A stretch of 64,000 bases of DNA from an uncultured Pseudomonadota bacterium (GTDB lineage: Bacteria > Pseudomonadota > Alphaproteobacteria > JACZXZ01): contig CAVVLJ010000004.1 in assembly GCA_963749075.1 (NCBI GenBank), positions 384,001 to 448,000 on the forward strand. The letters are read 5' to 3'. Positions 183 through 59,170 of this stretch are shown in pieces; within the stretch, counting starts at the first letter, position 1, and each line of letters opens with the position of its first letter. Under the pieces are notes generated by a model. The model ran no database searches. It worked only from the letters and a program-made list of their open reading frames with translations, and was not told where the DNA came from. A program made the translations under genes and the position numbers.

Positions 183-635
183 CTAGAAAGTGATCGTCGC
201 CGTGATCGTATCGGAATAGCTGCCCGACGGAACGTTCTGCAGCGCCGGAATGCTGCCATAGACCGTCACCGTGACGGTGCCCGTCCCAGGTGCGCTGTTG
301 CTGTAGGTCGAGCTTCCGCCCGTGCCGTCGCCCCAGATGGTCGTCAAGGCCGCATTGAGATAGAGATTATAGTCGAGGACGTTGGTGGTGAGCTTCATCG
401 TGCGGGGATTGAAGCTGCTCGAGCTGCCCTTGTTGAGCTGGATCGTTATGGCGGCCGAAACTGTGCATTTGAAGCTGACGGAGCCGTTCACGAGCGTAGC
501 GCTGGTCTTGAAGACGTTGTAATTGCCGAAGGTGACCGCGGTCGCGGAGAGCGTGCAGGAGTTCGCCGCCGCAGGTCCGGAAAGCAGCAGCAGCGCTCCC
601 GCGGCAAGAAGGCCCAGCCTGAATGCAGCGCCCAT
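183..635 (-). CDS. Spore coat protein U (Csu-type) pilin subunit
   Basis: Signal peptide, C..FGNY, conserved Cys pair, L-Y-N-L-Y and C-terminal G-S-Y-S-D-T-I-T-A-T-I-T-F. Confidence 0.9.
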   Translation of the reverse strand: MGAAFRLGLLAAGALLLLSGPAAANSCTLSATAVTFGNYNVFKTSATLVNGSVSFKCTVSAAITIQLNKGSSSSFNPRTMKLTTNVLDYNLYLNAALTTIWGDGTGGSSTYSNSAPGTGTVTVTVYGSIPALQNVPSGSYSDTITATITF

Positions 636-636
636 C

Positions 637-3019
637 TCAACCCTCCGTGACTTCTGTCGTGCATACCAGCTCGCCCAAGTTCACCGAGCGCTCGGCGGAG
701 GCTGGCGCCTTGAGCGTGAAGCGGCACTCGCGGCCCCTGTAGCGGATGACCGCGGGCAGGCTGCCCGCCGGCAACTCCTCGAAATAGAACTGCCCCTTGT
801 CGCCGATGGGCGAGACATAGTTGCCCCCCTCCGCGGAGATGTCGATCTCGCCGTAGGCGGGAACGATCGTCTCGGTCCCGCTGCGGATCTTGAGGGTGCC
901 GATGAAGACCTCGAGGCGATGCACGGAGAATTCCACGACCGCGCCGCCGCGGTAGGAGGTCGCCACCGTCCGCTCGTTGCTCTGGACGGCATAATCCATC
1001 GAGATGTCCTGGTCGTTGATGCCGATGCGATTGCCCGAATAGCTCAGCAGATTCGGCACCAGCAAGTTGCCGTCGCTGTCGGTGCGGCCGAACGGCTGGT
1101 TCTCGAGATATCCGGTGACGCCTTCCACGCCCGGCACGCGGATCAAGGCATAGCCGTCGTTGAGCGGGCGGGTGGCGAAGACGTGGCCGTCGATGATGCC
1201 TATGGCGCCGCTGGCGCTCACGGTCGCGCTGTTCTGGCCGAGCTGACGGTCGACGTCGGCCTCGTAGAGCCCGAACGGCCCCTGATAGACGAGGTTGGCG
1301 AGCTCACCGCGGTCGCTGCCGGTCTGGGTCTGCACCAGGTAGCCGTAGCCCTCGCCCAGCGGCGGGGATTTCTGGATTTGGGCGACGCCCGTGACGCCGT
1401 CATGGCCGCGGCTTGCCGAAAAGGTGGCGCTGGTATCGCTGTCGATTGCCACGGCGAGGGACAGCAGGACCCGATTGTCCGTGGGTTGCCCCGATTGAAT
1501 GGCATGGCTGAGCGTGAGCGAAAGGTTCGCCCAGCTGTTGAGCTGCCTCGTCGCGGCGATGCTGGCTTGGTCGGTTCGCCCGGCATCCCGGAACGCGCTG
1601 CGCGACAGCTGTCCCGTCAAATCGCAGAAGTCCAAGGGAAACGCGAGATAGCCGTCCAACTGGCGGAGCGCGCGGTCGGTTTGCGGGCTCAAGCTCATGG
1701 TGGCGTAGCGGCGGCTGTTGCCGGTGAAGTCGCCGCCTATGGTAAAGAGCCTCGAGGTGTAGCTGTAGGTCGTCGAGCCGGCCCAGCCGTCGAGCCCGCG
1801 GTCGCGGCTGGCAGCGCCGAAGAAGCCGAACTGACCGAAGGACGTAGTGACGGCCAGCTCCGGCCCGCCCGCCTGCAAGCGCTCGTCGGCCTCGAGAAAG
1901 GCGCCCGGCGTGAAGGTATCGTCCAAGCCAAAGCGATGGTGCGCGAGAAACCCTGCATGGCGATAGTCGCCGAAAGCGTCGGTCGTCGCCATGTTGCGCT
2001 CGAGACCGAGATTGTAGGTGAACTCATGGAGCCCGGGCGCCAGCGACTGATCGCTGAGATAGTAGGGTGCGCCCAGCTCCTGCTGCTGGCCGAGGGCGTT
2101 GCGGATCACGATGCGGGTATTTCCGCTGCCCGTGAGCGCCGGGATGTTCTCCAGCGTGAACGGTCCGGGCGGCAGCGCCACGCTGCGCACGAGCACGCCG
2201 TTCACGTACACGTCGGCCGTCGAGGGCGTGTTCACGATGCCCGAGTAGCGCTGGGCGGGAAAGGGCGTGAAATAGGGATCGATGGAGTACTCCTTCGAGA
2301 AGCCGATGCCGCCGAGCGGGCTGAGGCCGCCGAGATTGCCGCCGTTGGCAAGCGTGTCCCCCAGCTGAAGCCGCGTCATCTCATCGCGATCGTCGAGGTT
2401 GAGCGTCGTGTTGGTGCGCGAGATCTGCCCCATGTTATTGCGCGAGACGATGTTGTCGAAGAACGCGCTGTCGAAGGGGCCCAATTGGCCGAGACTGGCG
2501 CCTTGTTCGCTGAACGCGCTGAAGCGGTTGAAGTCCTGTGCCGTGACAGCGTAGTTGAGGAAGGCGCTCGGTACGCTCATATAGACCATGTCCTTCGGCC
2601 GGTTCCGCCCCAGGTTGACGGTCGAGCCGGAGAGCAGCGACGGATCCACGGTGAGGCGCAACGCCACCTCCGCCTCGTCGAACACGTAAGTCACCTTCGG
2701 CGCAAGCGCGCCCAGGCTGACATAGGACACGCCGTCGATGGTCTCGGCGCGTCCGGGGACCGACACGAAGCCGGCCTTGCGCAGCTCGTCGATGCGCAAA
2801 AGGAAATCCTTGCCCCGCACGAGCGCGTTGACCTCGTCCTTGTCCTCGCCGTTGACCGACAGTGCGAGAACGGCGTGCCGAACCTTGTCCTCGGGCGCCG
2901 CCGCGATCTCGACCGGGCCGAGGAGCACCTCGATGTCCGGCCCGGCCGCGATCGCCGCCGGACCGGACGTTCGAGGCGAGCAGAGAAACCATGCCGAGAA
3001 GCGCGAGCCGGAGTTTCAT
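637..3019 (-). CDS. Fimbrial outer-membrane usher (CsuD/PapC-like); apparent +1 frameshift near 2960 separates the signal peptide
   Basis: 763-aa usher ORF (VYVNG..PGPF, GRTDSDG). Signal peptide MKLRLALLGMVSLLAS starts at 3019 in another frame. Confidence 0.88.
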
Positions 3020-3046
3020 TCGACTGCCCGCGCCGTGTCGCGCGCC

Positions 3047-3883
3047 TCACGGCGTCCCGGACTGCGCCGCGCCAGGCGATTTCAGGAACTCGGTTCGCGC
3101 CGCCGAGCCGCCGGGGCTGCACGCGAGCGGGAATTCCGCACGGACCGGCGCCGGGTCGGTCTCGGCCTCGAGGACGATGCGGCTCGCGCGGCGGCAATCC
3201 GCTTCGGCGAGGGCCAGGCGATAATCGCGAGTGCCGCCGGCGAGCACGTACCAACCTGGGACCGCCAAGTCGAAAACGCTCTTTCCGGCGGAATCCACGC
3301 CGACCGCGCGCAGACGCCGCACCATCAGGTGCGCGGTGCCGTTGTTGAGGATGGCGAACGATACGACGTTCCCGGCGAGCGACGGCGGCCCGATGCGCGG
3401 GTCGGGGCGCGCATCTCTCGGCGCAACGAAGATGGGAAGGCTGATCTTGGCGAGGAACCTGATGGACATGGCGCTGCTCGCCACCGTCTCGTTCGGCAGC
3501 TCCTGCAAGATCAGGCGATAGGTTTTTTCGCTCTTGTCGAAGGGCACCTGCACGCCGACGCGGATCCGCTTGGTCTCGCGGGGGCCGAGCGTCATGAGAA
3601 GGGGAAACGCCACCACGTCCTCGGTGCGCTCGAGGACCATGCCGCCGTCGGCGCTCTGCCGCCAGGCGAAGGTGCTGAGCTCGTAGCGGAGCGTGTCGTC
3701 GCCTTCGTTGATCAGACTGAGGAGCTCGGTCGGCTTCCCCGGAGTGATCGCCACCTCGGTCGGGGAAACCTGCACCTCTCCCGCCCGTGCGGGCAGTGCT
3801 ACGGCGCACGCGAGCGTGAGCGCGCCGGCACCCAGCAAGACCACATTGCGCATGACGCTCAAGCTTGGAACCATGACATCCAT
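3047..3883 (-). CDS. Periplasmic pilus chaperone (CsuC/PapD-like)
   Basis: Signal peptide, VSPT, IRVG, EKTYRLILQELP, ISLPIFV and NNGTAH motifs; located between the pilins and the usher. Confidence 0.9.
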   Translation of the reverse strand: MDVMVPSLSVMRNVVLLGAGALTLACAVALPARAGEVQVSPTEVAITPGKPTELLSLINEGDDTLRYELSTFAWRQSADGGMVLERTEDVVAFPLLMTLGPRETKRIRVGVQVPFDKSEKTYRLILQELPNETVASSAMSIRFLAKISLPIFVAPRDARPDPRIGPPSLAGNVVSFAILNNGTAHLMVRRLRAVGVDSAGKSVFDLAVPGWYVLAGGTRDYRLALAEADCRRASRIVLEAETDPAPVRAEFPLACSPGGSAARTEFLKSPGAAQSGTP

Positions 3884-4117
3884 CCTCCCTGGCGACGCGT
3901 GCTACACGCGCTCAAGCTCCCCAAGGGCGCTCATCGCTGATCGACGCAGCGCTGCTTCGTTGTATGATCGGTGCGGCCTAGGGTCCCCGCGTGCCGCGCC
4001 ACATGGCTGCGAGGCCGAGAGGCAGCCGGCCGGCCGTTGTTGCAGTCGCGGAAATAGCCGTGGCGCCGCCGCGCGGCCGCAGAGGGCCGTGGCACTGCCG
4101 CCGGCCGGCGATGGGCT

Positions 4118-4621
4118 CTAGAAGGTCGCGGTGACGATCACGATGTTGGGCGAGACCGCGAATGGCGTCGGCGGGTTGGCCGCCGCGCTGCCATAGGAGA
4201 ACAGGACGAGGCTGGCGCCGGTGGCACTGACCGGGAGGCTCCGCACGGTCCTTTCGGGGGCGCCGTGCGTCACCACTCTCCCCGCGGCGGCAAGCGCACG
4301 ATCGGCCACCTGCTGCCAGCCGGGCGGAACCGCGCCGAGGCTGTTGGGGAAACTGAAGAGGACCGCGGGCGCCGCCCCGCTGCTGCAATGCAGGGCGACC
4401 GGAGCGGGCGCCGCAGGATCGACCAGGTCGAGCATGCCGCTCCCGACAACGGTCGCGGCAGTCGATATATTGCAGACCCTTACGACCCTCGCCGACACGA
4501 CCATCTTGGCCGTGACGGCGGCTGCCAGCACCTCCGGCACATTCATTGCCAAGACCAGGATAAAGAGCGCGGCCGGCAACCCGCCAATTCGCACCAGCGC
4601 GCGCCGCATCGCTTGGATCAT
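4118..4621 (-). CDS. Divergent Csu-type minor pilin-like protein
   Basis: Hydrophobic leader, A-M-V-S-A-V---C motif with second Cys, and C-terminal VTATF as in the neighbouring pilin. Start placed at MIQAM after a purine-rich RBS. Confidence 0.6.
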   Translation of the reverse strand: MIQAMRRALVRIGGLPAALFILVLAMNVPEVLAAAVTAKMVVSARVVRVCNISTAATVVGSGMLDLVDPAAPAPVALHCSSGAAPAVLFSFPNSLGAVPPGWQQVADRALAAAGRVVTHGAPERTVRSLPVSATGASLVLFSYGSAAANPPTPFAVSPNIVIVTATF

Positions 4622-4999
4622 CGTTCCCGCTCTCCTGCCGCGAGGACCGCCGCCAATTGACGATCCGGACGAGGTGCTGGACGGCCGCCACGATGCGGCT
4701 CGTAGCGCGCAGGCGAAGCCTGCTGCGGCTCGTTCCGCGTGGCAGCGCCGCGACGCCTCGATCCTCCGCCATAGTAGTGCTTGACGGGGCGCGACGGAAG
4801 GTGCTTGCACGGCGACCGACGGAGGGCGCAAGGCAAGTCATGTGACATGTCATCATGCGAGCGATCCTGACGCGCGTGTCATGGGGCTCGGCTCCGCGAG
4901 GAGAGAGAAGCCTCGTCGTCTCGTCATCGCTTTTTCGCTTGACTGCGCGCGGCCGGTTCGGCGCTTTCCGGCAAATTCGCGCCGGTCCCACGCGCAGCG

Positions 5000-5512
5000 T
5001 TAGAACGTCGCCGTGACGACGACCGTGTCGCTATAGGTGGTGGCGGACGGCACGTTCTGGCCGGTTCCGATCGTGCCGTACGCCGTCAGGTTCGCGGCGG
5101 TGCCGGAGCCCGTCACCGTCTCCGTGCCGGTGGTGTTCCACACGGTGGTATTGCCGACGTTCTGATAGATCTCGTAACCCAGATAGTCGCCCGAGCCGTC
5201 CGCCATCGCGCGCGTGCCGAAAGTCCCCTTGCCGGCGTTGTTGCCCAAGCTCAAGGAAATCGTCCCCACGGTATTCTTGTTGCAATTGACGGTGACCGTC
5301 GCGGTGGTCGTGAGAGCGGCGGTAAAGCTGTAACTGCCGAAGCCCAGTGCGGTCGTCGACAAAGTGCAGGCATTCACGACCGTCGCGGAGACCGCCATGT
5401 TCGCGGTCGCGGTGCCCGCCGCGAGCGGCGACGTATGCATGCCGACGGCTCCGAGGACGGCAAGACAGGCCGCCGCCCGCAGCAAGGTGCTGACTCTCAA
5501 TATCCGCATCAT
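5000..5512 (-). CDS. Spore coat U domain major pilin (CsuA/B-like)
   Basis: Signal peptide, VSATVVNAC..LGFGSY, L-Y-I-Y and YSDTVVVTATF; first gene of the cluster with a GGAG RBS. Confidence 0.9.
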   Translation of the reverse strand: MMRILRVSTLLRAAACLAVLGAVGMHTSPLAAGTATANMAVSATVVNACTLSTTALGFGSYSFTAALTTTATVTVNCNKNTVGTISLSLGNNAGKGTFGTRAMADGSGDYLGYEIYQNVGNTTVWNTTGTETVTGSGTAANLTAYGTIGTGQNVPSATTYSDTVVVTATF

Positions 5513-7113: not shown

Positions 7114-9135
7114 CTAGAGCCGTGCCTTGGCGGCGGCCACCACCGCGTCCGGGGTGATGCCGAAATGCTTGTAGAGTGCGGCATAGGGTGCCGAGGCGCC
7201 GAAGCCGTGCATGCCGATGAAGATGCCGTCCGGCCCGAGATGGCGCTCCCAGCCGAAGCCGATAGCGGCCTCGATGCCGATGCGCAGCGTGCCCGGTGCC
7301 AGGAGCTCCTCGCGGTAGGCGGCAGGTGCCTCAGCGAAGAGCGCCTCGCAGGGCATCGAGACGACGGCAGCACCGATCCCTTCGCCCGCCAGCGCCGCGC
7401 GCGCCGCGAGGGCGATCTCGACCTCCGAGCCGGTGGCGATGAGCGTCACGCGCCTGGTACCCTCCGCCGCCGCGAGGAGATAGGCGCCCTTGGCCGAGAG
7501 GTTCTCCTCCGCGTGCGCGAGGCGCACGGGCTCGACCGACTGGCGCGTGAGCGAGAGCACGGAGGGCGAACGTTCGGCCGCTAGTGCCAGCGCCCAGCAC
7601 TCGGCGGTCTCGACGCCGTCCGCCGGGCGGAAGACGAGGAGGTTGGGGATCGCGCGCAAGGCCGCGAGCTGCTCGACCGGCTGGTGGGTCGGGCCGTCCT
7701 CGCCGAGGCCGATCGAATCATGGGTCATCACGAAGATGACGCGCTGGCCCATCATCGCAGCCAGGCGGATGGCGGGCCGGCAATAGTCGGTGAAGACGAG
7801 GAAGCTGCCGCCGTAGGGGATGACGCCCCCATGCAGCGCGAGGCCGTTCATGGCGGCGGCCATGGCGTGCTCGCGCACGCCGTAATGGATGTAGCGCCCG
7901 GCGAACTTGCCGCGCTGAACCGGCGCCATGTCGCGGCCCTGGCTCGCGTTCGAGCCCGTCAAGTCGGCCGAGCCGCCGACGAGTTCCGGGATCGCCGCCG
8001 CCAGATGGTCGATGACGAGCTTGGAGGCCTGGCGCGTGGCGAGCTTCGGCTGCTTCTCCGCGAACTCACGCTTGGCGGCGAGCACCGCCTGCTGCCAGCC
8101 CGCGGGCAGCCGTTTGGCATGCACGCGCTCGTATTCGGCGCGCGTCTTGTCCTCGAGCCTGGCCACGGCCTCGCTCCAGCGCCGGTAAGGCACGGCGCCG
8201 CGCCCGCCCGCCTTGCGCCAGGCGGCTGCCACCTCGGGCGGAATCTCGAAGGGGGCCGCGTGCCAGCCGAGTGCCGCGCGCGCCCCCTCGATCTCCTTGG
8301 CGCCGAGCGGAGCACCATGGGCGGCGGCCGTGCCCGCCTTGGTGGGCGCACCCTTGGCGATCGTGGTGCGGCAGGCGATGAGGGAGGGCGTTCCAGTCGC
8401 GTGCGCGCTCGCGAGCGCCCCCTGGATCTCGCCCGGCTGGTGGCCGTCGACCGCCTGCACGTCCCAGCCCGAGGCGCGGAAGCGCGCGAGCTGGTCGTCG
8501 GAGACGGCGAGCTCGGTCGGGCCGTCGATCGAGATGCGGTTGTCGTCCCAGAGGAGGATGAGCTTGCCGAGCTGGAGATGGCCGGCGAGCGAGATCGCCT
8601 CGTGGCTGATGCCCTCCATGAGACAGCCGTCGCCGGCGATCACGTAAGTGTAGTGGTCGACCACGGCATTGCCGAAGCGGGCATTGAGCAGGCGCTCAGC
8701 CAACGCCATGCCGACGGCGTTGGCGATGCCCTGGCCGAGCGGCCCGGTCGTCGTCTCGATGCCGGCGGCAGCACCATATTCGGGATGGCCGGGCGTGCGG
8801 CTGCCGAGCTGGCGGAAGCGCTTGATCTCCTCCATCGTCATGTCGGCGTAGCCGGTCAGGTGGAGGAGGGCATAGAGCAGCATCGAGCCGTGCCCGGCCG
8901 AGAGCACGAAGCGGTCGCGGTCCGGCCACTCGGGGTGAGTGGGATCGTATTTGAGGAAGTCCGAGAACAGCACCGTCGCCACGTCGGCCATGCCCATCGG
9001 CATGCCGGGGTGGCCCGCGCCGGCCTTCTCGACGGCGTCCATGGCAAGGGCGCGGATGGCATTCGCCATGTCCCTGTGGCGCGCCAGGGGAGAGTGTAGC
9101 GTTGCGCTGTCGTCCATCGTCCTGGAGCGAGCCAT
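7114..9135 (-). CDS. tkt: Transketolase (start may be 9117)
   Basis: [31 protein letters not shown]. Confidence 0.97.
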
Positions 9136-9271
9136 CTCGGCCGGAAGGGTGAGGCGATCGGGCGCCCCGGCAAAGGGCCGCGATGCCGGGGCAACATGCC
9201 GCTCCCCCTATGCGGCGTCAATCGGCTTCTCTCGCTCGCTTCGCTCGCGCAGCATCAGAGCCGGCCGCCGA

Positions 9272-9301
9272 TTGACGCTCGGCTTCCTCGCGGCGTATGC
9301 T
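9272..9301 (+). promoter_or_regulatory. Putative sigma70 promoter of the DUF4164-zapA operon
   Basis: TTGACG-N18-TATGCT about 50 bp upstream of ATG 9352. Confidence 0.5.
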
Positions 9302-9351
9302 CGCGGCCCCGGAGCAAGGCGCTAAGCCTTTCTTGGAGCGCGGAATTTCCC

Positions 9352-9573
9352 ATGTCTCGGCTCGAGCAGGCGCGGCGGCGGTTGGAGCTTGCGGTAAGCC
9401 GCCTGGAGCGCACCGCGCAACGAAGCCATGCGCGTCTTGCCGAGCGCGCCGAGCTCGCCAATGCACTCGAGGCGGCGCGGGCCGAGGGCAAGGACCTGCG
9501 CGATCTCGGCGCCGCCCTCTCGACGCGGCTCGATGCCGTGATCGGGCGCTTGAAGTCGACGCTTCAGGCGTGA
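9352..9573 (+). CDS. Small coiled-coil protein (DUF4164-like) upstream of zapA
   Basis: MSRLEQARRRLELAVSRLE...RLDAVIGRLK coiled coil in the conserved alphaproteobacterial tkt-zapA position. Confidence 0.75.
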   Translation: MSRLEQARRRLELAVSRLERTAQRSHARLAERAELANALEAARAEGKDLRDLGAALSTRLDAVIGRLKSTLQA

Positions 9574-9577
9574 CGCC

Positions 9578-9907
9578 ATGGCCCAGCTCACCGTCACCAT
9601 CAACGGCCGCGGCTACCAGATCGCCTGCGACGACGGGCAGGAGGAGCATCTCGCCAAGCTCGCGGCCTATGTCGACAAGCGCGTCTCCGAGCTCATAGCA
9701 TCCATGGGCCAGATCGGCGACACGCGGCTTCTCGTCATGGCGAGCCTCTTGATCGCCGACGAGCTCTCGGACTCCTACAAGGCGCTCCAGGCCGAGCGCG
9801 GCAAGCCCGTCGGCTTGACGCCCGAGGCGGAGGCCGCGATGGCGCAGGGCATCGAGGCCCTTGCCGCGCACATCGAGGCGATTGCGGCGCGCCTGGAAGC
9901 CGCCTAG
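9578..9907 (+). CDS. zapA: Cell division protein ZapA
   Basis: VTINGRGYQIACDDGQEEHL, RLLVMASL. Confidence 0.93.
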   Translation: MAQLTVTINGRGYQIACDDGQEEHLAKLAAYVDKRVSELIASMGQIGDTRLLVMASLLIADELSDSYKALQAERGKPVGLTPEAEAAMAQGIEALAAHIEAIAARLEAA

Positions 9908-9920
9908 AGTCGTGCTCGAA

Positions 9921-10076
9921 CGGGGCTGGCCGGCGCGTCAGGCCGCTTCGTGCCCTGGGGCCAATGTCTTCATCTGGGGAGCTGTCTCTACCGTGACCCT
10001 GGTCACGGCACATGGCGCCCACCTGCGTGAGCAGGCCACAGAGGACAAGTAACGGCCAACGGCTCGGGTGGCTCCG
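9921..10076 (+). ncRNA. ssrS: 6S RNA
   Basis: Canonical position between zapA and the 5-FTHF cycloligase gene. Ends pair (CGGGGC/GCTCCG), with alphaproteobacterial-type CCCTGGGGCC..GGAGCTGTC..CATGGCGCCCACCT segments. Ends approximate. Confidence 0.85.
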
Positions 10077-10126
10077 TTCGCTCTGCCTTTCTCGCGAGCC
10101 GCCATGGACGAGCCCAAGGACCAACG

Positions 10127-10735
10127 ATGACCCTTCTCGAGGCCAAAGCGGCGGCCCGGCAGGCGGCGGCGGCCCGCCGCGACGCCGCCCATGCGTTGCT
10201 CGCCGGGACGGCGCCCGGCCGCGTCGCGGCCCATTTCGCCGCGGCCTTCCGGCTCGAGGCGGGCGCTGCCGTCTCCGGCTACTGGCCGGGGCGGAGCGAG
10301 CTCGACATCCGCCCGCTCATGACGGCGCTCGAGCGGGAGGGCCACCCGATCGGCCTTCCCGTCGTCGTGGGCCGCGGCAAGCCGCTCCTCTTCCGCCGCT
10401 GGCGGCCGGGCTTGGCACTCGAGGCCAAGGCCTTCGGCTTGCGCGAGCCGCCTGCCGCCGCACCCGAGGTCGTGCCGCAGGTGCTGCTGGTGCCGTTCCT
10501 CGCTTTCGATGCCGAGGGCTATCGTATCGGCTATGGCGCCGGCTACTATGACAGGACGCTCGCGGCGCTCAGGGCCAAGGCCGACGTGCTCGCGATCGGC
10601 GTCGGCTATGCCGCCCAGCGGGTCGAGCGCCTGCCCCGCGACGGGCACGACGAGCGGCTCGACTGGGTGGTGACGGAGGAGGGGGCCCAGCACTTCGCGC
10701 GCGCCGCCATCTCCGCCGCGGGCGGCGTGCGATGA
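10127..10735 (+). CDS. 5-formyltetrahydrofolate cyclo-ligase
   Basis: LLVPFLAFDAEGYRIGYGAGYYDR, HDERLDWVVTE. Confidence 0.93.
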   Translation: MTLLEAKAAARQAAAARRDAAHALLAGTAPGRVAAHFAAAFRLEAGAAVSGYWPGRSELDIRPLMTALEREGHPIGLPVVVGRGKPLLFRRWRPGLALEAKAFGLREPPAAAPEVVPQVLLVPFLAFDAEGYRIGYGAGYYDRTLAALRAKADVLAIGVGYAAQRVERLPRDGHDERLDWVVTEEGAQHFARAAISAAGGVR

Positions 10736-11580
10736 AGCTCCTCATGTGCGGCGACGTGATGGGCCGCGCCGGGCGCAAGGCGGTGATCCGCCAGGTGCCG
10801 CTCTTGCGCAAGGCGCTCGACCTCGATTTCGTCGTGGTCAACGGCGAGAACGCGGCCGGCGGCTTCGGCATCACCGGCGACATCTGCCAGGAGTTCTATG
10901 CCGCGGGCGTCGATGCCATCACCACCGGCAACCACGTGTGGGACCAGAAGGAGACGCTCGCCTACATCCAGCGCGACACCAAGCTCCTGCGCCCGCACAA
11001 CTACCCGCTCAATACGCCGGGCCGCGGCGTCGGCGTCTTCGCCGCGCGCGGGGGAAAGCGCATCGTGGTGCTGCACATGATGACGCGGCTCTACATGGAG
11101 GCGCTCGACTGCCCCTTCGTCGGCCTCGACCAGCAGCTCGAGGTCTTCAAGCTCGGCAAGAACGCGGATTTCATCCTGGTCGACATCCACGGCGAGGCGA
11201 CGAGCGAGAAGATGTCCGTCGGCCACCATTGCGACGGCCGCGTCTCGGCCGTCATCGGCACCCATTCCCACGTGCCGACCGCGGACGCGCAGATTCTCCC
11301 GGGCGGTACCGCCTACCAGACCGATCTCGGCATGTGCGGCGACTACGACTCGGTGATCGGCATGAAGAAGGAGCCGGCGGTCGCCCGCTTCGTGACCAAG
11401 CTCAAGGGCGAGCGGCTCACCCCCGCCGAAGGCGAGGCGACGCTCTGTGCCGCCTATGTCGAGAGCGACGACGCGACGGGATTGGCCAGGCACATCGCGC
11501 CCGTGCGGCTCGGCGGGCGCCTCCAGCCGCACTGGCCGCTCCCGGCACCCGCGGGTGCCCTCAAGGTGCCGCCGGTCTGA
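10732..11580 (+). CDS. ymdB: YmdB-like (TIGR00282) metallophosphoesterase
   Basis: GDVMG, NGENAAGG, GNHVWD, DIHGEATSEK, GTHSHVPTAD, GMCGDYDSVIG. Confidence 0.92.
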   Translation: MKLLMCGDVMGRAGRKAVIRQVPLLRKALDLDFVVVNGENAAGGFGITGDICQEFYAAGVDAITTGNHVWDQKETLAYIQRDTKLLRPHNYPLNTPGRGVGVFAARGGKRIVVLHMMTRLYMEALDCPFVGLDQQLEVFKLGKNADFILVDIHGEATSEKMSVGHHCDGRVSAVIGTHSHVPTADAQILPGGTAYQTDLGMCGDYDSVIGMKKEPAVARFVTKLKGERLTPAEGEATLCAAYVESDDATGLARHIAPVRLGGRLQPHWPLPAPAGALKVPPV

Positions 11581-11582
11581 GC
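11423..11582 (+). repeat. Direct repeat copy 1: functional 3' end of ymdB
   Basis: 160 bp matching 12977-13136 (offset 1554), 9 mismatches by eye; 11518-11582 identical. Confidence 0.95.
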
Positions 11583-11630
11583 CGATCACAGCACGCGCCC
11601 GTCTGTGCGAGCTCTCGCGATATGCCGGCT

Positions 11631-12855
11631 TCAGCCCCAGAGGCAGGGCAATGGTGCTGCGAACTGCCGATCGCCGAAGGGAATGACCTCCTCGCCGTCA
11701 TAGAGCACGACGCCAAGCTTGAAGGCGCTCCCCACCGCGCTCGATAACCTTTCAAGGCCGCGAAAATCCGAGGTCTTCACGCTCGCCGCAGCCTTGACCT
11801 CGATGCCGACGATGTCGCCTGCGTCGTTTTCGAGGACGATGTCGACCTCGCGCTGGTCCTTGTCCCGGTAATGGAAGAACGAGATACGCTCCTCCGCCCA
11901 CGAAGCCTGTTTCAAGAGTTCCGCGTAGGTAAAGCTCTCGAGAAATGGCCCGAGCGCGCCGTGGTCTGCCCGCAATTTGGCAAGCGATTGGCCACGGACG
12001 GCAGCGAGCAGCCCGGCATCGAGAAAGTGCAGCTTTGGAGACTTGGTGAGCCGTTTCAACTCGTTGCGGAACCAGGGACGAATATGTTGCACCAGAAATA
12101 GCTGCTTCAGGATGCCGATGTAGCGATCGGCGGTTTTGTGATCGAGTTCGGACTCTTGCCCCGATTTCGGAGAGATTGACGAGCCGGCCGGAGAATTGCG
12201 CCACGAGTTCTACCAAGTGCCGCAGCTGTCCGAGCTTCTCGACGGCCGCGATTTCGCGAATGTCGCGGGCGATGATCGCTTCGATGTAGGCCCGGCACCA
12301 ATCCCGCCGTCGCCGCTCGCTCGGTCTTGCCAGGACCTCAGGGTATCCTCCAGCCAGGATGGTGGAGATCAGATCATCACCGATCAGCCGCTCGGCCGGC
12401 GCGGGCAGTTCTCCTGCGAAGACTCGTGCAAGAAAGCTAGGCTTGCGGCGGCTGAGCACCTCGGCGCGCGAAAGCGGATAGAGGGGCACGACCTCCATAC
12501 GGCCGGCGAGGGACTCCTTGACCTTGGGGATCGTCAGAACGTGGGCTGAGCCCGTCAGCAAGAAGCGGCCGGGGCGGCGATCGTCGTCGACGGATCGCTT
12601 GATCGCGAGCAGCAACTCCGGTGCGCGTTGGACCTCGTCGATGACGGCCCGCTCAAGGCCGCGAATGAAGCCGACCGCATCGCGGCGCGCGGCTTCCAGC
12701 GTGGTGGCGTCATCGAGCGTGACGTAGCGGCGCTCCCGGCCCGCGAATTTCTGCGCCAAGGTGGTCTTGCCCGACTGCCGCGGGCCGTTCAAGGCGACCA
12801 CTGGCGTATCGGCCAGCGCCTCGCGGAGTCTGTGCTCGACGAAACGCGGATACAC
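11631..12855 (-). CDS. AAA+ ATPase (AAA_14) with C-terminal DUF4143 / PD-(D/E)xK nuclease domain; apparent +1 frameshift near 12150
   Basis: Walker A GPRQSGKT, Walker B VIDEVQ, LTGS, ESLAGR, GGYP, then KSPKLHFLD, ES and EVDIVLE..GIEVK. Two ORFs join if one base is removed near 12150. Confidence 0.88.
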
Positions 12856-12896
12856 GGGTCCAGCTCATCCCGCTTGCTGCGGCGGCGCTAGAGTAT

Positions 12897-12967
12897 CGAC
12901 AAATTGGGATTTCTGCAACGTCCGTTTGGGAAAATCAGACCGTCCAATTGGGAAGTAAAAGCCGTGC
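12897..12967. promoter_or_regulatory. Three 22-bp-phased direct repeats upstream of the AAA-DUF4143 gene
   Basis: TTGGGA at 12904, 12926 and 12948; CGTCC/CGTCC/CGTGC at 12919, 12941 and 12963. Confidence 0.75.
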
Positions 12968-12976
12968 GCCCAAGCG

Positions 12977-13136
12977 CCGCCGAGGGCGAGGCGACGCTCT
13001 GCGCCGCCTATGTGGAGAGCGACGATGCGACGGGATTGGCCAAGCACATTGCACCCGTGCGCCTCGGCGGACGCCTCCAGCCGCACTGGCCGCTCCCGGC
13101 ACCCGCGGGTGCCCTCAAGGTGCCGCCGGTCTGAGC
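12977..13136 (+). repeat. Direct repeat copy 2: detached duplicate of the ymdB 3' end (gene fragment)
   Basis: Encodes AEGEATLCAAYVESDDATGLAKHIAPVRLGGRLQPHWPLPAPAGALKVPPV*, the same as the YmdB C-terminus apart from R>K. Confidence 0.95.
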
Positions 13137-13150
13137 AGGTGCTGCGCGCT

Positions 13151-13360
13151 TCAGCTATGCTGGGCCCCGGGGCGCTCTTTCGCGTAATAGAGCACGGCGG
13201 AGACGACGACCCAGGCGCCTGCTACGATGTACCAGGGGAAGATGCCGCTCAGCGCGATGATCACCGACAGGGCCAGCGCATAGAAATAAAGGAGAGCAAC
13301 GGCAAAGGTGCTGACGCCCACGAAAACGTTCCGCACCCGCCCCTCGGTCCCTGCCGTCAT
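13151..13360 (-). CDS. Small membrane protein, two predicted TM helices
   Basis: ATG at 13360 after a GAGGG RBS; two long hydrophobic stretches. Confidence 0.6.
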   Translation of the reverse strand: MTAGTEGRVRNVFVGVSTFAVALLYFYALALSVIIALSGIFPWYIVAGAWVVVSAVLYYAKERPGAQHS

Positions 13361-13553
13361 TGTTTCTTCCCTCTCGGTTAAGGTTCGCTCGGCTGCCGCA
13401 ATTGGGCTACCCCTCCCGAGGCCGCGACGCGCCGCTCGGCGCGCAGCCTGCGAGCATTGCCAGCGTAGCACGAATCGCTCGCCGCCTCGTCTCTAATATA
13501 TCCGCCGGCCTTGCGCGCGGCGAGGGAGAACGCCGCGGCTCGCCTCGCGATTG

Positions 13554-13916
13554 CTAGCCCTTGCGCTCGAGATGCATGAGCCGTCTGCATCCGGCCCCCA
13601 TGGTCCCGCCGCCGGAGCTGGTATAAGTGGCTTCGAACGTCTTGCCCTCGAACTTACCCGAGAACATCTCGCCCCCGATCGTGCCGCGGAAGGTGCCGTC
13701 GGCGCCGACCTTGCCCTTCACGGCAACGCCGGCGCTGCCCCAGGCGCTCGTCCCGCTCACGATGCCATCGGCGACGGTGAGGGTGACCGAGGTCTGCGGC
13801 ATGCGGCACGTCGGCCCGGCGCCTCCTTGATAGGTGCCGTCGAAGGGACCGGCGGAGAACGCCGTGCCCGCGAAGAGCGTCAGGCCGGTAACGCTGACGA
13901 TGAGCAGCTTGCGCAT
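13554..13916 (-). CDS. Small secreted protein of unknown function
   Basis: Signal peptide [31 protein letters not shown], two Cys, beta-rich Gly pattern; AGGGGG RBS. Confidence 0.7.
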
Positions 13917-14087
13917 CGGATGCCCCCCTTGCATTCGTGCCGCCATTGTCATGGCGTGGCTGCGCTGCTGTCAATCGCGTCGCGGCCGCCGGGCCCGCGG
14001 GGCGGAGCCAATGCGCTTTTCCGGCGGCACCCGGAGTGTTAGAACCACGCGCGTTGCAGCACTCCTTCCCGGGCAGGCGTCCTCACG

Positions 14088-14852
14088 ATGAAGCGTTCCG
14101 AGCGGCCCACCGGACTGGACTACCTCGGCAATCCCGCCATCACGGAGCCTTTCGGCGTGGACCGGCCGGCGGCTCGCCTCCTCTTCGACTTCGCGGTGAT
14201 GGCGGCGTGCATCAATCCTCTCCTCGCCGAGCAGGCGTTCCTCGACTTCGGCGCCGGCTCGGGGTGGATGACCGAGCTGCTCGCGCGCATGGGCCGGCGC
14301 GTCGCGGCATTCGACCTCCACGGCAATCTCGAGAGCTGCCTGCAGCACCGCGTCGACGCGGACCTCCGCACGCGGCCCGAGCTCATCTCGTGGCGGCAGG
14401 GCGACGGGCACGCCATGCCCTTCGCCGATCGCTCCTTCGGCCACATCTTCTGCTACGACACCCTGCATCACATGCACGACTATCGGCGCGTCTTTGCCGA
14501 GTTCGCACGCGTGCTCGAGCCCGGCGGCCGCGCCATCTTCTCGGAGCCGGGTGCCCGCCACAGCACCATGCCGGCGACGATCGCCTTCCTTCAGGAGCAG
14601 AAGGCGCACGATCCGGCGTGGATCGAGCGCGACGTGGTCCTCGAGGAGATCGACGGCATCGCCCGCGCCGCCGGCTTCACGGGCCTCGCGGTGGTCCCCA
14701 CGCTGCCGCCCGACAGCCTCATTTCCTTCACCCTCTCCGATTGGCGGGCCTTCCGCGCCGGCAAGCGCTCGCTGCGGCGCGCCTTCGCGGACCGTCTCTC
14801 CGAGGTCAACTACGACTTCCATGTCGCCTTCTATTGCGATCTTGCGCGCTGA
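14088..14852 (+). CDS. Class I SAM-dependent methyltransferase
   Basis: [10 protein letters not shown] motif [25 protein letters not shown]. Confidence 0.85.
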
Positions 14853-15055
14853 GCGCCGCCGAGGGAGGGACGCGATCCCGTGCCTCCGCGATCGCCGCCA
14901 CTGAGAGGGCGGCCGAGATCAGCACCCCGGCCGAGACGCCCCAATCCTGCCATATTGCTCTGTTAGCTCGGGCGCCAGTCGCCGTGCGCCTGCCCACAAG
15001 ATATGGTATGATGGAAACTCGCAGCTCGCCTGCGCTAGCTCAATTCGCGGACTTT

Positions 15056-15808
15056 ATGGCCGGCCATTCGCAATTCAAGAACATCATGTACCGGAAGGGC
15101 GTGCAGGATGCCAAGCGCGCGCGCCTCTTTGCCAAGCTCATCCGCGAGATCATGGTGTCGGCGCGCTCAGGCCTGCCCGATCCCGCCGCCAACCCGCGCC
15201 TGCGCGCGGCGATCGCGGCGGCGCGCGATGCCAACATGCCGCGCGACACCATCGAGCGGGCGATCAAGCGGGCGACCGGCGGCGAGGAGGGGGCGATCTA
15301 CGACGAGGTGCGCTACGAGGGCTACGGACCGGGCGGCGTCGCCATCATCGTCGATGCGCTCACCGACAACCGCAAGCGCACCGCCTCCGACGTGCGCACC
15401 GCCTTCTCCAAGCACGGCGGCACGCTCGGCGAGACGAACAGCGTGAGCTTCCAGTTCAAGCGCATGGGCCAGATCGTCTACGGCGCCGCCACGGCCGGCG
15501 CCGACGCCATGTTCGAGGCCGCCCTCGAGGCGGGTGCCGACAACGTCGAATCGAGTGCTGCCGGGCACGAGGTGACGTGCCTTCCCGAGGACTTCGCCCA
15601 GGTGCGCGAGGCGCTCGAGAAGCGCTTCGGGCGGCCCGAGCGCGCCGGGCTCATGTGGAAGCCCCAGGCCGCGGTCGCGATGGCCAACGAGGAGGCGGCG
15701 CGCACCCTCCTCAAGCTCCTCGACCAGCTCGAGGACAACGACAACGTCCAGTCGGTCGCGGCCAACTTCGAGATTCCCGACGATCTCATGGCGAAGCTCG
15801 TCGGCTGA
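15056..15808 (+). CDS. yebC: YebC/PmpR family protein
   Basis: [25 protein letters not shown]; directly upstream of ruvC. Confidence 0.95.
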
Positions 15809-15848
15809 GCGGCGTGCCGGTCACGGAAGGGCTGAGGAGCCGCAGCAC

Positions 15849-16367
15849 ATGCGCGTATTGGGGCTGGATCCGGGTCTGAGGCGGACGGGCTGGGGCATCA
15901 TCGAGGCCGCGGACGGCCGGCTCAGCCACGTGGCCAACGGCTCATTCGGCTCCGACGCCGCGCTCGGGGTGGCCATGCGGCTCGTCCAGCTCTACGACGG
16001 CTTACACGCGGTGATCGCGCGCTATGCCCCGCTCGAGGCGGCGGTCGAGGAGACCTTCGTCAACAAGAACCCGAGCTCGACCCTGAAGCTCGGCCTGGCG
16101 CGCGCCATCGCCCTCTTGGCCCCGGCGCGCGCCGGCCTCGTGGTCACCGAATATCCCACCAATCTCGTCAAGAAAAGCGTGGTCGGCGCGGGCCACGCCG
16201 GCAAGGAGCAGATCCAGGTCATGGTGCGGCACCTGCTTCCCGCCGCCGAGATCGCGGACGCGGATGCGGCGGACGCGCTCGCGGTCGCCATCTGCCACGC
16301 CCATCACGCCGCCACCTTGAGCCGTTGGCACGCCTTCGCCGGCGCTGCCGGCAGGCGCCGCGCATGA
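15849..16367 (+). CDS. ruvC: Holliday junction resolvase RuvC
   Basis: [27 protein letters not shown]. Confidence 0.96.
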
Positions 16368-35852: not shown

Positions 35853-36639
35853 ATGCGCATCCCGCTCTACCAGATCGACGCCTTCGCCTCTCGCCCCTTT
35901 GCGGGCAATCCGGCGGCGGTGTGCCCGCTCGAGCGCTGGCTCGACGACACGACCATGCAGTCGATCGCGACCGAGAACAATCTCTCCGAGACCGCCTTTT
36001 TCGTGAGGCGCGGCGAGGACTTCGATATCCGCTGGTTCACGCCCGTGGCCGAGGTCGACCTCGCCGGCCACCCGACGCTGGCCACGGCCTATGTCATCCT
36101 CGAGATCCTCGAGCCCAGGCGCGAGGGCGTGCGCTTCCATACGCAAAAGTCGGGCGCGCTTTCCGTGACGCGCGCGGGCGACAGGCTCGCGATGGATTTC
36201 CCCGCGCGTCCGCCGGGCAGCCAAGCCCGGCCTTGGCGACGTGGCGGCGGCGCTCGGCGCCGAGCCGCGGGAGGTGCTCGCCGCGCGCGACGGCTTCGCC
36301 GTCTTCGCGAGCGAGGCCGAGGTCGAGGCGCTCAAGCCCGATTTCGCCAAGGTGGCGGGGCTCGACTGCATGGGCCTCATCGCGACGGCGCCGGGCGACG
36401 GCGGCGTCGATTTCGTCTCGCGCTTCTTCGCACCCAAGCACGACATCAACGAGGACCCGGTCACCGGCTCGGCCCACTCGACGCTCATCCCTTATTGGGC
36501 GGCCAAGCTCGGCAAGCGCCGGCTCTTCGCGCGCCAGCTCTCCAAGCGCGGCGGCGAGATCTGGTGCGAGCACCGCGGCGAGCGCGTCGAGATCGCCGGC
36601 CAGTGCGCCCGTTTCATGGAGGGGACGATTACCCTGTGA
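35853..36639 (+). CDS. PhzF family isomerase; apparent +1 frameshift near 36215
   Basis: DAF..GNPAAV, NLSETAF, RWFTP.EVDLAGHPTLA, SRFFAP, EDPVTGSAH. Confidence 0.88.
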
Positions 36640-44492: not shown

Positions 44493-44821
<329 letters not shown>

Positions 44822-44822
<1 letters not shown>

Positions 44823-45262
44823 TGCTCTATTTCGATACGAGCTTTCTTGCCCCGCTCATCCTTCCGGAGCCGACGAGCGGCAGGGTCGAGCGGCTCGTGC
44901 GGCGGCTTCCGGCCGGCGAGTTCGCCATCAGCCAGTGGACGCGCGTCGAGTTCTCCTCGCTCCTCGCCCGCGAGGTCCGCATGGGCGGCCTCGCGGCCGA
45001 GGCGGCGCACGCCGCCGACGCCGAATTCGAGGCTGTCGTCGCGGAGTCGTTCGACGTGCTTGTGCCGGATGCGGCGGACTTCTCCCTCGCGAAGCATTAT
45101 CTCGCGCGGTACGAGACTGGATTGCGCGCGGGCGACGCGCTCCATCTCGCTATCGCCGCCAACCGGCGGGCCGGGATGATCTACAGCCTGGGCAAGGCGA
45201 TGGTGAGGGCCGGCAAGCGCCTCGGCCTGCCGATCGGCGCGGGACTCCGGCTCCGCGGCTGA
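44822..45262 (+). CDS. vapC: PIN-domain (VapC) toxin
   Basis: YFDTS, E, LRAGDALHLA; TGATG coupling to the antitoxin. Confidence 0.88.
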
Positions 45263-48728: not shown

Positions 48729-50019
<1,291 letters not shown>

Positions 50020-57663: not shown

Positions 57664-57739
57664 GTCCCCATCGTCTAGAGGCCCAGGACGGAGCCCTCTC
57701 ACGGCTCAAACCGGGGTTCGAATCCCCGTGGGGACGCCA
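57664..57739 (+). tRNA. tRNA-Glu(CTC)
   Basis: Acceptor GTCCCCA/TGGGGAC, anticodon arm GAGCC-CTCTCAC-GGCTC, GTTCGAATC T-loop, encoded CCA. Confidence 0.96.
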
Positions 57740-58407: not shown

Positions 58408-58803
58408 TCAGCTTTGCCAATCCTCGATCCGCAGTCCCGGCACACGCGCGTACTCGCTCCTGTTGTGCGTGACGAGGATCATGTTGCGCGCCATGGCCTG
58501 CCCGGCGATCAGCACGTCGTAAGGGCCGATGGGCGTTCCCTTGCCGGCGAGATACGCCCGCACCTTGCCGGCTTGCCGTGCGTCTTCCCTGTCGAAATCG
58601 AGCACGGCAAACTGGAGAGCATCCACGAGGGCGACGTTATGGGCCGCGCGCCGGCTCTTGAAGGCGCCGTAGAAGAGCTCGTGCGCCACGATGGCGGACA
58701 TGGCCACGTCGCCGGGCCTCTCCCGCCGCGCGCGTTGCGCAGCTCTCGACGCGGTGTCGTTCAGCAGGGCAATGACCGCGTTGGCGTCGAGGAGATAACG
58801 CAT
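58408..58803 (-). CDS. vapC: VapC PIN-domain toxin
   Basis: YLLDAN, ELFYG, PIGPYDVLIAG, LVTHN..E. Confidence 0.92.
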   Translation of the reverse strand: MRYLLDANAVIALLNDTASRAAQRARRERPGDVAMSAIVAHELFYGAFKSRRAAHNVALVDALQFAVLDFDREDARQAGKVRAYLAGKGTPIGPYDVLIAGQAMARNMILVTHNRSEYARVPGLRIEDWQS

Positions 58804-59048
58804 CAGCGGAACAATTCGTCGAGCGCAGGACGCTCCTGCGGCTCCGGCTCCTCTTCGGCGGCGCGAATGAAATCCTCATCGAGCTGGCCTGCGATCGCGT
58901 CCAGCCAACTCCAGTCCTCGGCCATGGGCTCGAGGATGACGGCGCTGCCGTGGCGCCGGATGCGCACCGCCTCGCCCTCGAAGCGAAACTCCTTCGGCAA
59001 CCGCACCGCCTGCGATCGCCCGGACCAGAAAATCTTCGCCGTTTCCAT
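58803..59048 (-). CDS. vapB: VapB (AbrB/SpoVT-type) antitoxin
   Basis: AKIFWSGRSQAVRLPKEFRF, QERP. Confidence 0.93.
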   Translation of the reverse strand: METAKIFWSGRSQAVRLPKEFRFEGEAVRIRRHGSAVILEPMAEDWSWLDAIAGQLDEDFIRAAEEEPEPQERPALDELFR

Positions 59049-59062
59049 GGCCGCACCTCGAT

Positions 59063-59085
59063 GCCATATATCAATGATATATAGC
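59063..59085. promoter_or_regulatory. vapBC operator palindrome
   Basis: Perfect IR ATATATCA-A-TGATATAT (59066-59082) just upstream of vapB. Confidence 0.75.
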
Positions 59086-59170
59086 AGCGCGCCCATGCCA
59101 GTGCAAGTCTCCTCTTCGCGCAGAAGTTTCCGCTAGTCCGATTGGCCGCGATCGCAGTCGAGGCCTGCGC

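Follow-up and report, generated by a model that had tools for sequence, protein, structure and literature searches.

A PDC-S01 ATPase-nuclease gene between two alleles of the ymdB 3' end in an alphaproteobacterial chromosome: a possible scar of site-specific integration

A 64,000-nucleotide (nt) segment of the genome of an uncultured alphaproteobacterium (assembly GCA_963749075.1, contig CAVVLJ010000004.1, positions 384,001 to 448,000; the whole of this stretch is called the window below) contains a single ATPase-nuclease gene lodged immediately downstream of ymdB and bracketed by two diverged copies of the 3' end of that gene. We propose, with a probability of roughly 45%, that this unit is the scar of a site-specific integration at the ymdB 3' end, or an integrase-less remnant resembling a cis-mobilizable element (CIME), and that the ATPase-nuclease gene is its cargo. 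The integrating element would have carried a substitute copy of the ymdB end, as prophage e14 and phage 21 do for icd of E. coli. Upon integration the host gene would have been completed by one allele of its last ~160 nt, and the other allele would have ended up beyond the insert as a fragment without function. As each allele would have evolved in a working gene, the differences between them are almost all synonymous. What remains between the copies would be one horizontally acquired gene with its own operator/promoter, and the recombinase, an integrase that we infer to have made the joint, would lie outside the unit, either lost by deletion or acting in trans.

The ymdB gene (10732..11580, + strand) encodes an intact YmdB-family metallophosphoesterase of 282 amino acids, which matches Pfam PF13277 over residues 4-257 (E 7.4e-98) and scores 242 bits against TIGR00282, under the cut-off of 254. 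It lies within the conserved neighbourhood zapA-6S RNA-cycloligase-ymdB-yebC-ruvC. A repeat search matched 11404-11582 directly to 12958-13136, at a spacing of 1554 nt and 91% identity. The core of the left copy (11423..11582, +) comprises the last 158 nt of ymdB and 2 nt beyond its stop codon, where the repeat ends, and the core of the right copy (12977..13136, +) is a partial ymdB 3' end that lies outside any full gene. When aligned separately, the two cores differ at nine positions (11430, 11448, 11460, 11472, 11489, 11496, 11499, 11508 and 11517), all within the first 95 nt. Eight of these are synonymous third-position differences (GAA/GAG, TGT/TGC, GTC/GTG, GAC/GAT, ATC/ATT, GCG/GCA, CGG/CGC and GGG/GGA), and the sole replacement is AGG/AAG (R/K). 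The final 65 nt (11518..11582 on the left, 13072-13136 on the right), which encode the tail RLQPHWPLPAPAGALKVPPV, are without mismatch. Realignment thus reproduced exactly the 160-bp repeats and the nine mismatches that the original prediction had described by eye; the complete Pfam domain bears out its statement that the host gene was left intact, and the arm-insert-arm layout is compatible with the Campbell-type geometry that it had proposed.

To the left of the 160-nt repeat, weaker similarity starting at 11404 pairs with a degenerate edge at 12958-12976, where 11 of 19 positions match, a degree of agreement expected by chance at ~0.6-1% (0.006-0.010); the similarity therefore probably continues for these 19 nt. 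Divergence consequently falls into three tiers from left to right, with 8/19, 9/95 and 0/65 positions differing, and the longest run of identity outside the 65-nt block is 17 nt. Apart from a proline-rich coding array, no other long direct repeat was found in the window. Within the 65-nt block of both copies lies a perfect 16-nt palindrome, GGCACCCGCGGGTGCC (11544-11559 and 13098-13113), which is restricted to the two copies; yet perfect palindromes of 16 nt occur 11 times in the window, and the palindrome was given little weight.

The character of the mismatches indicates how the copies diverged. Random substitutions in the codons of the repeat would be synonymous in 27-30% of cases, so that eight or more synonymous changes among nine have a probability of 2e-4 to 5e-4. 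A fairer null, in which a functional copy takes synonymous changes only and a dead copy accumulates changes without constraint, gives 6e-3 to 1.1e-2. Because the synonymous excess is beyond chance under both nulls (P 2e-4 to 1e-2), the claim of the original prediction that the copies diverged while both were coding, and are thus two alleles of ymdB, can be upheld. The distribution of the synonymous differences is also uneven, with 8 of 25.3 synonymous sites changed in the first block and 0 of 17.0 in the last (P = 0.016). In any model a single crossover with a foreign arm leaves this identical 65-nt block unexplained; either the arm was mosaic, or conversion followed, or chance was at work (P ~0.01-0.02).

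Comparison with other YmdB proteins bears on which of the two alleles was the resident one. In the 90% YmdB cluster, residue 253 is K in P0124, the closest member (94% identical), and in P0125, and T in three others; R occurs in the more distant relative L001 and in the intact gene of the window. At residues 234-236, the partial copy and all relatives read S/T-A-A, the intact gene T-P-A. The partial copy therefore has the S234, A235 and K253 of P0124 and P0125 where the intact gene has T, P and R. Measured against P0124, the protein of the intact gene has 5 replacements among the 32 residues of the repeat segment and 11 among the 230 upstream of it. At the nine variable sites the nucleotides of L001, whose protein is 79% identical, agree with the left copy twice, with the right copy four times and with neither three times, these sites being saturated. 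The protein tail past RLQPHWPLP differs among the nearest relatives and is the same in both window copies. P0124 is itself a partial protein, and its contig stops at ...GGRL, where the 65-nt identical block starts. Under an e14-type integration the displaced partial copy should be the resident allele, an expectation with which the S/A/K residues agree weakly; they weakly suggest that this copy is the old ymdB end of the chromosome.

The insert-specific DNA between the copies (11583..12976) measures 1394 nt and consists of 48 nt, the ATPase gene, and an upstream region of ~120 nt. The gene (11631..12855, - strand) is predicted to encode an AAA_14 ATPase (PF13173, E 6.6e-25 over residues 17-134) fused to a DUF4143 domain of the PD-(D/E)xK nuclease type (PF13635), and was assigned by PADLOC to type PDC-S01. 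The predicted catalytic motifs are present in the translation: Walker A (GPRQSGKT), Walker B (VIDE) and a D...ExK signature (EVDIV...GIEVK). With a GC content of 0.628 and a GC3 of 0.75-0.79, the insert departs from the window as a whole (GC 0.695) and from ymdB (GC3 0.94). Its composition marks it as foreign, and its single gene as one that appears to have been acquired horizontally. Its family is broad, with 7964 of 8000 scored candidates at E <= 0.001; no NCBIfam model was found for the protein, nor any solved structure that matches it by sequence.

The description of the unit as holding a single AAA_14-DUF4143 gene was correct as to domains and family, though not as to one open frame. One extra base at 12148-12149 interrupts the gene, and the DUF4143 profile is consequently split, with positions 2-46 in the open reading frame (ORF) 12855..11752 and 61-159 in the ORF 12092..11631; the PADLOC model PDLC04790, of length 422, is likewise matched in two parts (positions 11-246 with 308 bits, and 268-418 with 204 bits). 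A database protein, P0001, is intact at 407 amino acids and 100% identical over residues 1-235. Since this intact version exists and since two other genes of the window, purA and a PhzF-family gene, are also split, the frameshift is probably an assembly error rather than decay. Annotation of the gene in pieces owing to this indel would probably amount to mis-annotation.

Upstream of the gene are three 12-nt direct repeats, TCCCAATTGGAC, TCCCAAACGGAC and TCCCAATTTGTC (12898..12953, - strand), which lie at -98, -76 and -54 from the ATPase start and are thus spaced by 22 + 22 nt. The same spacing gave the top-scoring three-copy array upstream of 16 of 16 plasmid homologues (L081-L096), where the motifs are of the TTTCAATTGGTC or the TCCGGATTGGAC type. 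When each upstream region was shuffled 60 times, no shuffle reached the observed score in 14 of the 16 homologues, one did so in L088, and 14 did so in L094. The array is presumably an operator/promoter element common to the family, and it is perhaps bound by the ATPase-nuclease itself. A promoter and terminator scan of 11300-13600 found nothing exceeding shuffled sequence. With its ends cut to 48 nt past the stop codon and ~20 nt past the array, the insert has the layout of a complete, self-contained gene unit.

The closest known parallel is the joint of prophage e14 with icd in E. coli K-12, which we measured in the same manner (icd - e14 - icdC). There, a 165-nt duplication with a sharp left border carries 12 mismatches in 162 nt, ten of them in synonymous codons and two D-to-E replacements, and the repeat finishes just beyond the stop codon of a host gene that is functional. 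Length (165 versus 160 nt), the composition of the mismatches (10 synonymous + 2 D/E versus 8 + 1 R/K) and the position of the repeat end are thus alike. The integrase crossover in e14 takes place at the left border, brings in the phage-borne gene end and displaces that of the host (PMC13626634). The original prediction had considered an undescribed mobile element or passive RecA-mediated capture; an integrase-made scar of the e14 type would account for the two alleles, and a new mechanism is not needed. A further likeness is that e14 carries the defence genes lit and mcrA beside its attachment (att) sites, and that the insert in the window is itself a candidate defence gene. The two cases differ in that e14 spans 15.2 kb with intE and xisE, whereas the insert spans 1.39 kb without a recombinase, and in their targets, which are icd for e14 and phage 21 and ymdB in the window. 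A described class that would accommodate the missing integrase is the CIME, an att-flanked remnant of an integrative and conjugative element (ICE) or integrative and mobilizable element (IME) that lacks the integration genes (PMC5704250). In the window unit repeats, putatively att sites, are present and an integrase is absent; the unit differs from a CIME in that no cognate ICE or IME with ymdB specificity was found among the 80 relatives described below. Two other explanations were rejected: an insertion sequence (IS) or transposon, since no transposase was found in the ORFs scanned, no inverted repeats listed by the repeat search pair the ends of the insert, and the duplication is 160 nt long and non-identical; and a homing endonuclease, since homing leaves no duplication.

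Relatives of ymdB provided a view of the same chromosomal site in other genomes. At least 598 stretches of genome contigs matched the search pattern and at least 590 of them encode a YmdB relative; the best 80 were analysed, of which the closest, L001, is 79% identical in amino acids and all others are at most 67% identical. L001 and the window are colinear up to 11565, and colinearity resumes at 14937; the DNA in between (L001 2025-4022) is unrelated, and no counterpart of the insert was found in it. In the 53 loci with ruvC in range, the distance from the ymdB stop to the ruvC start was below 1.5 kb in 37 and 1.8-9.5 kb in 16; in the window it is 4.27 kb. The enlarged gaps hold differing, lineage-specific genes (kinases, P450, chemoreceptor, ParE and others). 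In the window the remainder of the lineage-specific ymdB-yebC gap (13137..14936), outside the unit, contains a small membrane-protein ORF, a 132-amino-acid ORF and a methyltransferase. Because the enlarged gaps have unrelated contents, the ymdB-yebC interval appears to be a variable spot, with the ATPase unit at its ymdB edge.

Several results weigh against an integrase-made scar. No integrase or transposase Pfam domain was found in the 72 ORFs scanned across the window; the original prediction's statement that no such gene lies in or near the unit holds for these ORFs and does not extend to the rest of the 548-kb contig. The insert itself offers space for a single gene. The best 80 relatives, distant as they are, offered no related complete element at the ymdB end: no ATPase homologue was present at any of the 80 ymdB loci, no second copy of the ymdB end was detected in any of them (63 had at least 2 kb of downstream sequence, and the same procedure recovered the 160-nt repeat from the window as a control), and none of 43 ORFs from the 16 enlarged ymdB-yebC gaps encodes a recombinase. 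Inverted core sites of the att type were not demonstrated in the repeats. The insert is also very tight, with 48 nt past the stop codon and ~20 nt past the array, and deletions would have needed to trim it precisely. Finally, the 65-nt tail is identical although the stretch of protein that it encodes varies more among relatives than any other; in e14, where mismatches reach position 144 of 165, no identical block of similar length occurs. In the literature we found no description of mobility for the AAA_14/DUF4143 family, nor of ymdB as an attachment site.

The plasmid-borne homologues gave a view of how genes of this family are carried. A tblastn search with P0001 found 211 plasmid records, ~55% identical, and 16 loci were examined for flanking repeats over 4 kb on each side. 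The flanking gene-end duplications that the original prediction expected around homologues were seen at none of the 16 loci, nor was any long direct repeat found to bracket the homologue, under conditions in which the window control gave its 160-nt repeat; one 35-nt repeat in L089 is distant from the ATPase homologue. The homologues lie in accessory surroundings, among IS elements, Qat, restriction genes and toxin-antitoxins. In L084 (2298-5227), L087 (2286-5227) and L088 (4001-6928) a DUF1403 gene and a ScpB-like gene adjoin the homologue; between L084 and L087 the shared DNA reaches 1.8 kb upstream from the ATPase.

DNA searches started from two of the plasmid loci revealed that the part shared with other plasmids is the cassette alone. 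In Agrobacterium this is a 1.5-kb, single-gene cassette that runs from -245 nt of the start codon to +33 nt past the stop codon, and five copies at 96-99% identity (L091 3756-5257, L097 3001-4509, L098 3001-4508, L103 2501-4006 and L104 ~2494-3990) differ in their flanks, of which there are four on the left and five on the right, and have nothing else in common. The cassette is bounded by imperfect direct repeats of 17-18 nt that resemble a tRNA T-arm (GTTCGATTCCCTTCAAG). At the left junction a context-specific version of GGTTCGATTCCGTTCAAG is followed by identical cassette DNA, and at the right junction the constant inner copy AAGTTCGATTCCCTTCAAG is followed by the flank. Empty sites, which have the same right flank and no cassette, share the core and read ...CTTCTGACCTTCAAG/GCGAAG (L105 ~2490, L106 ~2440). 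A second cassette group, from Rhizobium and Ensifer (87-93% identity), ends in the same motif at 87-98 nt past the stop. Both end sites were recognisable in 6 of 24 plasmid loci, and a loose form of the motif gave 22 matches in 26 plasmid loci, versus 26 in 2.45 Mb (both strands) of ymdB loci. The site, which can be written as GGGTCGnnGGTTCGATTCCnTTCAAG, was located at L090 2911 and 5294; L091 637, 3757 and 5243; L093 5284 and 6902; and L099 2994, 4625 and 5469. No integrase was found inside the Rhizobiaceae cassettes. ARAGORN detected no tRNA in ten plasmid loci, which indicates that the T-arm-like sites are not the ends of intact tRNA genes, and Rfam gave nothing credible in three plasmid loci. 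IS110-family elements lie in a right end site (L091 5244-6807, starting within the site) or beside a left end site (L103 933-2099).

The two cassette groups have differing operator motifs (TCCGGATTGGAC vs TTTCAATTGGTC) and one common end site. Other modules are bounded by this T-arm-like site as well: in L090 a RelE/ParE pair, in L091 a restriction-endonuclease module and in L093 a Fic gene. Given that the ends are common despite differing operators and other cargo, we infer that one recombinase, supplied in trans, recognises them in both groups and that the cassette's own protein does not, so that the ATPase would be cargo here too. The arrangement, with neither an integrase nor a tRNA gene close by, suggests arrays of exchangeable cassettes in Rhizobiaceae plasmids that belong to a cassette-exchange system. 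Such arrays follow a logic similar to that of integron cassettes, which are likewise single-gene units moved in trans. They differ from them in that the Rhizobiaceae sites resemble a tRNA T-arm fragment and not attC. For the window unit, no attC-type structure or IntI was seen, no attC model having been run, and integron cassettes are usually promoterless whereas the window ATPase has its own presumed upstream operator array. The idea of a minimal mobile unit is partly sustained: in Agrobacterium and Rhizobium plasmids, homologues do occur as separate single-gene cassettes of 1.5 kb that lack an integrase and keep their ends in unrelated contexts, but there they look like cargo. Because of these cassettes and their att-like repeats, the window unit may be a mobilisable cassette. 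Ends of the GTTCGATTCCCTTCAAG type, at up to five substitutions, were not found within -500/+200 of the window ATPase gene.

Among the competing explanations, the one that deserves most attention, though we consider it doubtful, is passive, integrase-independent capture, in which a circle or fragment carrying the cassette and a ymdB 3' arm entered by a RecA crossover in the 65-nt block or by homology-facilitated illegitimate recombination. This requires no lost gene and fits the absence of an integrase from the 72 ORFs scanned across the window. With repeated hops the arm would have become layered, the oldest layer being 12958-12976, the next (12977-13071) deriving from the previous host and the last (13072-13136) from the present one, and the three tiers of divergence are explained as these host layers. 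The 65-nt block is moreover the sole long run of identity, and in relatives the ymdB-yebC gap varies without integrases (16 of 53 enlarged, no recombinase in 43 ORFs). Precedent exists for displacement without an integrase that leaves orphan 3' fragments, as described for effector-immunity arrays of type VI secretion systems (T6SS) and for Rhs (PMC5361080). Those hot spots share with the window a conserved anchor gene, orphan 3' fragments and the lack of a recombinase; the displaced pieces there are ends of a variable toxin gene, whereas in the window a housekeeping gene forms the anchor and bears no relation to the cargo. Against capture stand the rarity of the process, especially between alleles ~9.5% apart, the earlier event needed to join the cassette to a ymdB fragment, and the residues of the right copy, which at three positions look resident, whereas capture predicts the reverse except with a sister lineage as donor. 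An e14-type scar, furthermore, yields the same picture by a common mechanism. An extension of capture would make the window unit one of a set of integrase-free, single-gene PDC-S01 cassettes that has taken up a housekeeping-gene end as a layered arm (42%, 9.5% and 0% divergent), with the crossover in the newest layer and the ATPase-nuclease helping or triggering it. We regard this as unlikely; if true, it would describe a mobile element without any classical recombinase. That the ATPase-nuclease is the engine of an autonomous, self-mobile 1554-bp element, cutting or recruiting recombination as the original prediction suggested, is more improbable still. The ATPase is the only gene of a unit with very tight ends, it has a nuclease domain and belongs to a widespread and patchy family, and the Agrobacterium cassette recurs in differing flanks. 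However, PD-(D/E)xK nucleases cut without rejoining, gene-end duplications occur at none of the 16 homologue loci, and none of the 80 ymdB loci of relatives is occupied. The window cassette also lacks the Rhizobiaceae end motif, and that motif is common to groups with different operators and to toxin-antitoxin, restriction and Fic modules; because it is independent of operator type and cargo, the DNA-binding specificity of the cassette itself does not account for recognition of the ends, which point instead to a recombinase in trans.

Two further explanations place the origin of the two alleles elsewhere. A perfect local duplication may have formed at insertion, after which most of ymdB was replaced by the allele of a related, insert-less strain; the replacement tract would then need to stop short of the insert, within the conserved first part of the 65-nt block, which codes for RLQPHWPLP. 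This accounts for the identical tail, for the synonymous pattern and for the ancestral look of the right copy. It needs two events, however, the first of which, the 160-nt duplication, is left unexplained, and the differences to P0124 (5/32 vs 11/230) fit a short foreign patch better, though the region is generally more variable; we find it very unlikely. Little more probable is that the duplication, or its two-allele character alone, is an assembly artefact that arose by mixing two strains. Indel errors are certainly present, with three genes split in 64 kb, including the essential purA, and two of them broken by an extra A in CGA[A]C. The intact P0001 is encoded on a contig of 1451 nt, for which unitig arithmetic at k=31 hints at a strain mixture, since the length would suit such a unitig only with the right-copy allele present in a further context in those data; the calculation depends on uncheckable assumptions about the assembler and was kept out of the evidence for the integration scar. 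But some real molecule must carry the junction of the insert with a partial ymdB (12976/12977), eight synonymous substitutions are not produced by indel-type errors, and a 548-kb contig that contains indel errors points to long reads, able to span 1.5 kb. Site-specific integration with subsequent loss, or action in trans, of the recombinase is thus the reading that we favour.

The remainder of the window is a segment of alphaproteobacterial chromosome with the order tkt-gap, zapA, 6S RNA, 5-formyl-THF (tetrahydrofolate) cyclo-ligase, ymdB, yebC, ruvCAB, tol-pal, ftsH. The 6S RNA (Rfam RF00013, 55.9 bits; 9920-10078, + strand) lies between zapA and the cyclo-ligase gene, which is its usual arrangement, and Rfam found nothing else in 9000-16000. 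ARAGORN identified one tRNA in the window, tRNA-Glu at 57664. The purA gene is frame-split at ~49385-49400 (Pfam profile positions 1-223 and 219-416) by an extra A in CTCGA[A]CGTCGAC, a context of the same type as that of the ATPase break, and the PhzF-family gene is split at ~36215-36240 (profile positions 1-104 and 158-281). Together, the split genes point to systematic indel errors in the assembly. The points at which the contigs of P0124 and P0001 stop would be compatible with a repeat or a strain variant having broken the assembly of other data sets. Two PIN-domain (VapC-like) genes (44768-45262, +; 58408-58803, -), each after a short ORF (44493-44822 and 58803-59096, respectively), are possible toxin-antitoxin pairs. 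A chaperone-usher cluster (183-5512, -) comprises two SCPU (spore coat protein U) domain genes, an usher and a PapD-like chaperone.

If the ymdB unit is the scar of a site-specific integration, it would be an ordinary but clean case of a defence-type gene arriving beside a core gene. ymdB would join the protein genes that serve as attachment sites, and two alleles of a gene end would constitute a reliable signature of such a scar even where no integrase is left. PDC-S01, an ATPase fused to a PD-(D/E)xK domain, is described in PMC12988326 as one of the commonest untested defence candidates of prokaryotes, and the window gene is by family association a candidate for anti-phage defence. For this very common and uncharacterised family, the conserved array with its 22-nt spacing would offer a handle on regulation, and that operator array, together with the cassette sites of the Rhizobiaceae, may outweigh the ymdB scar in importance.

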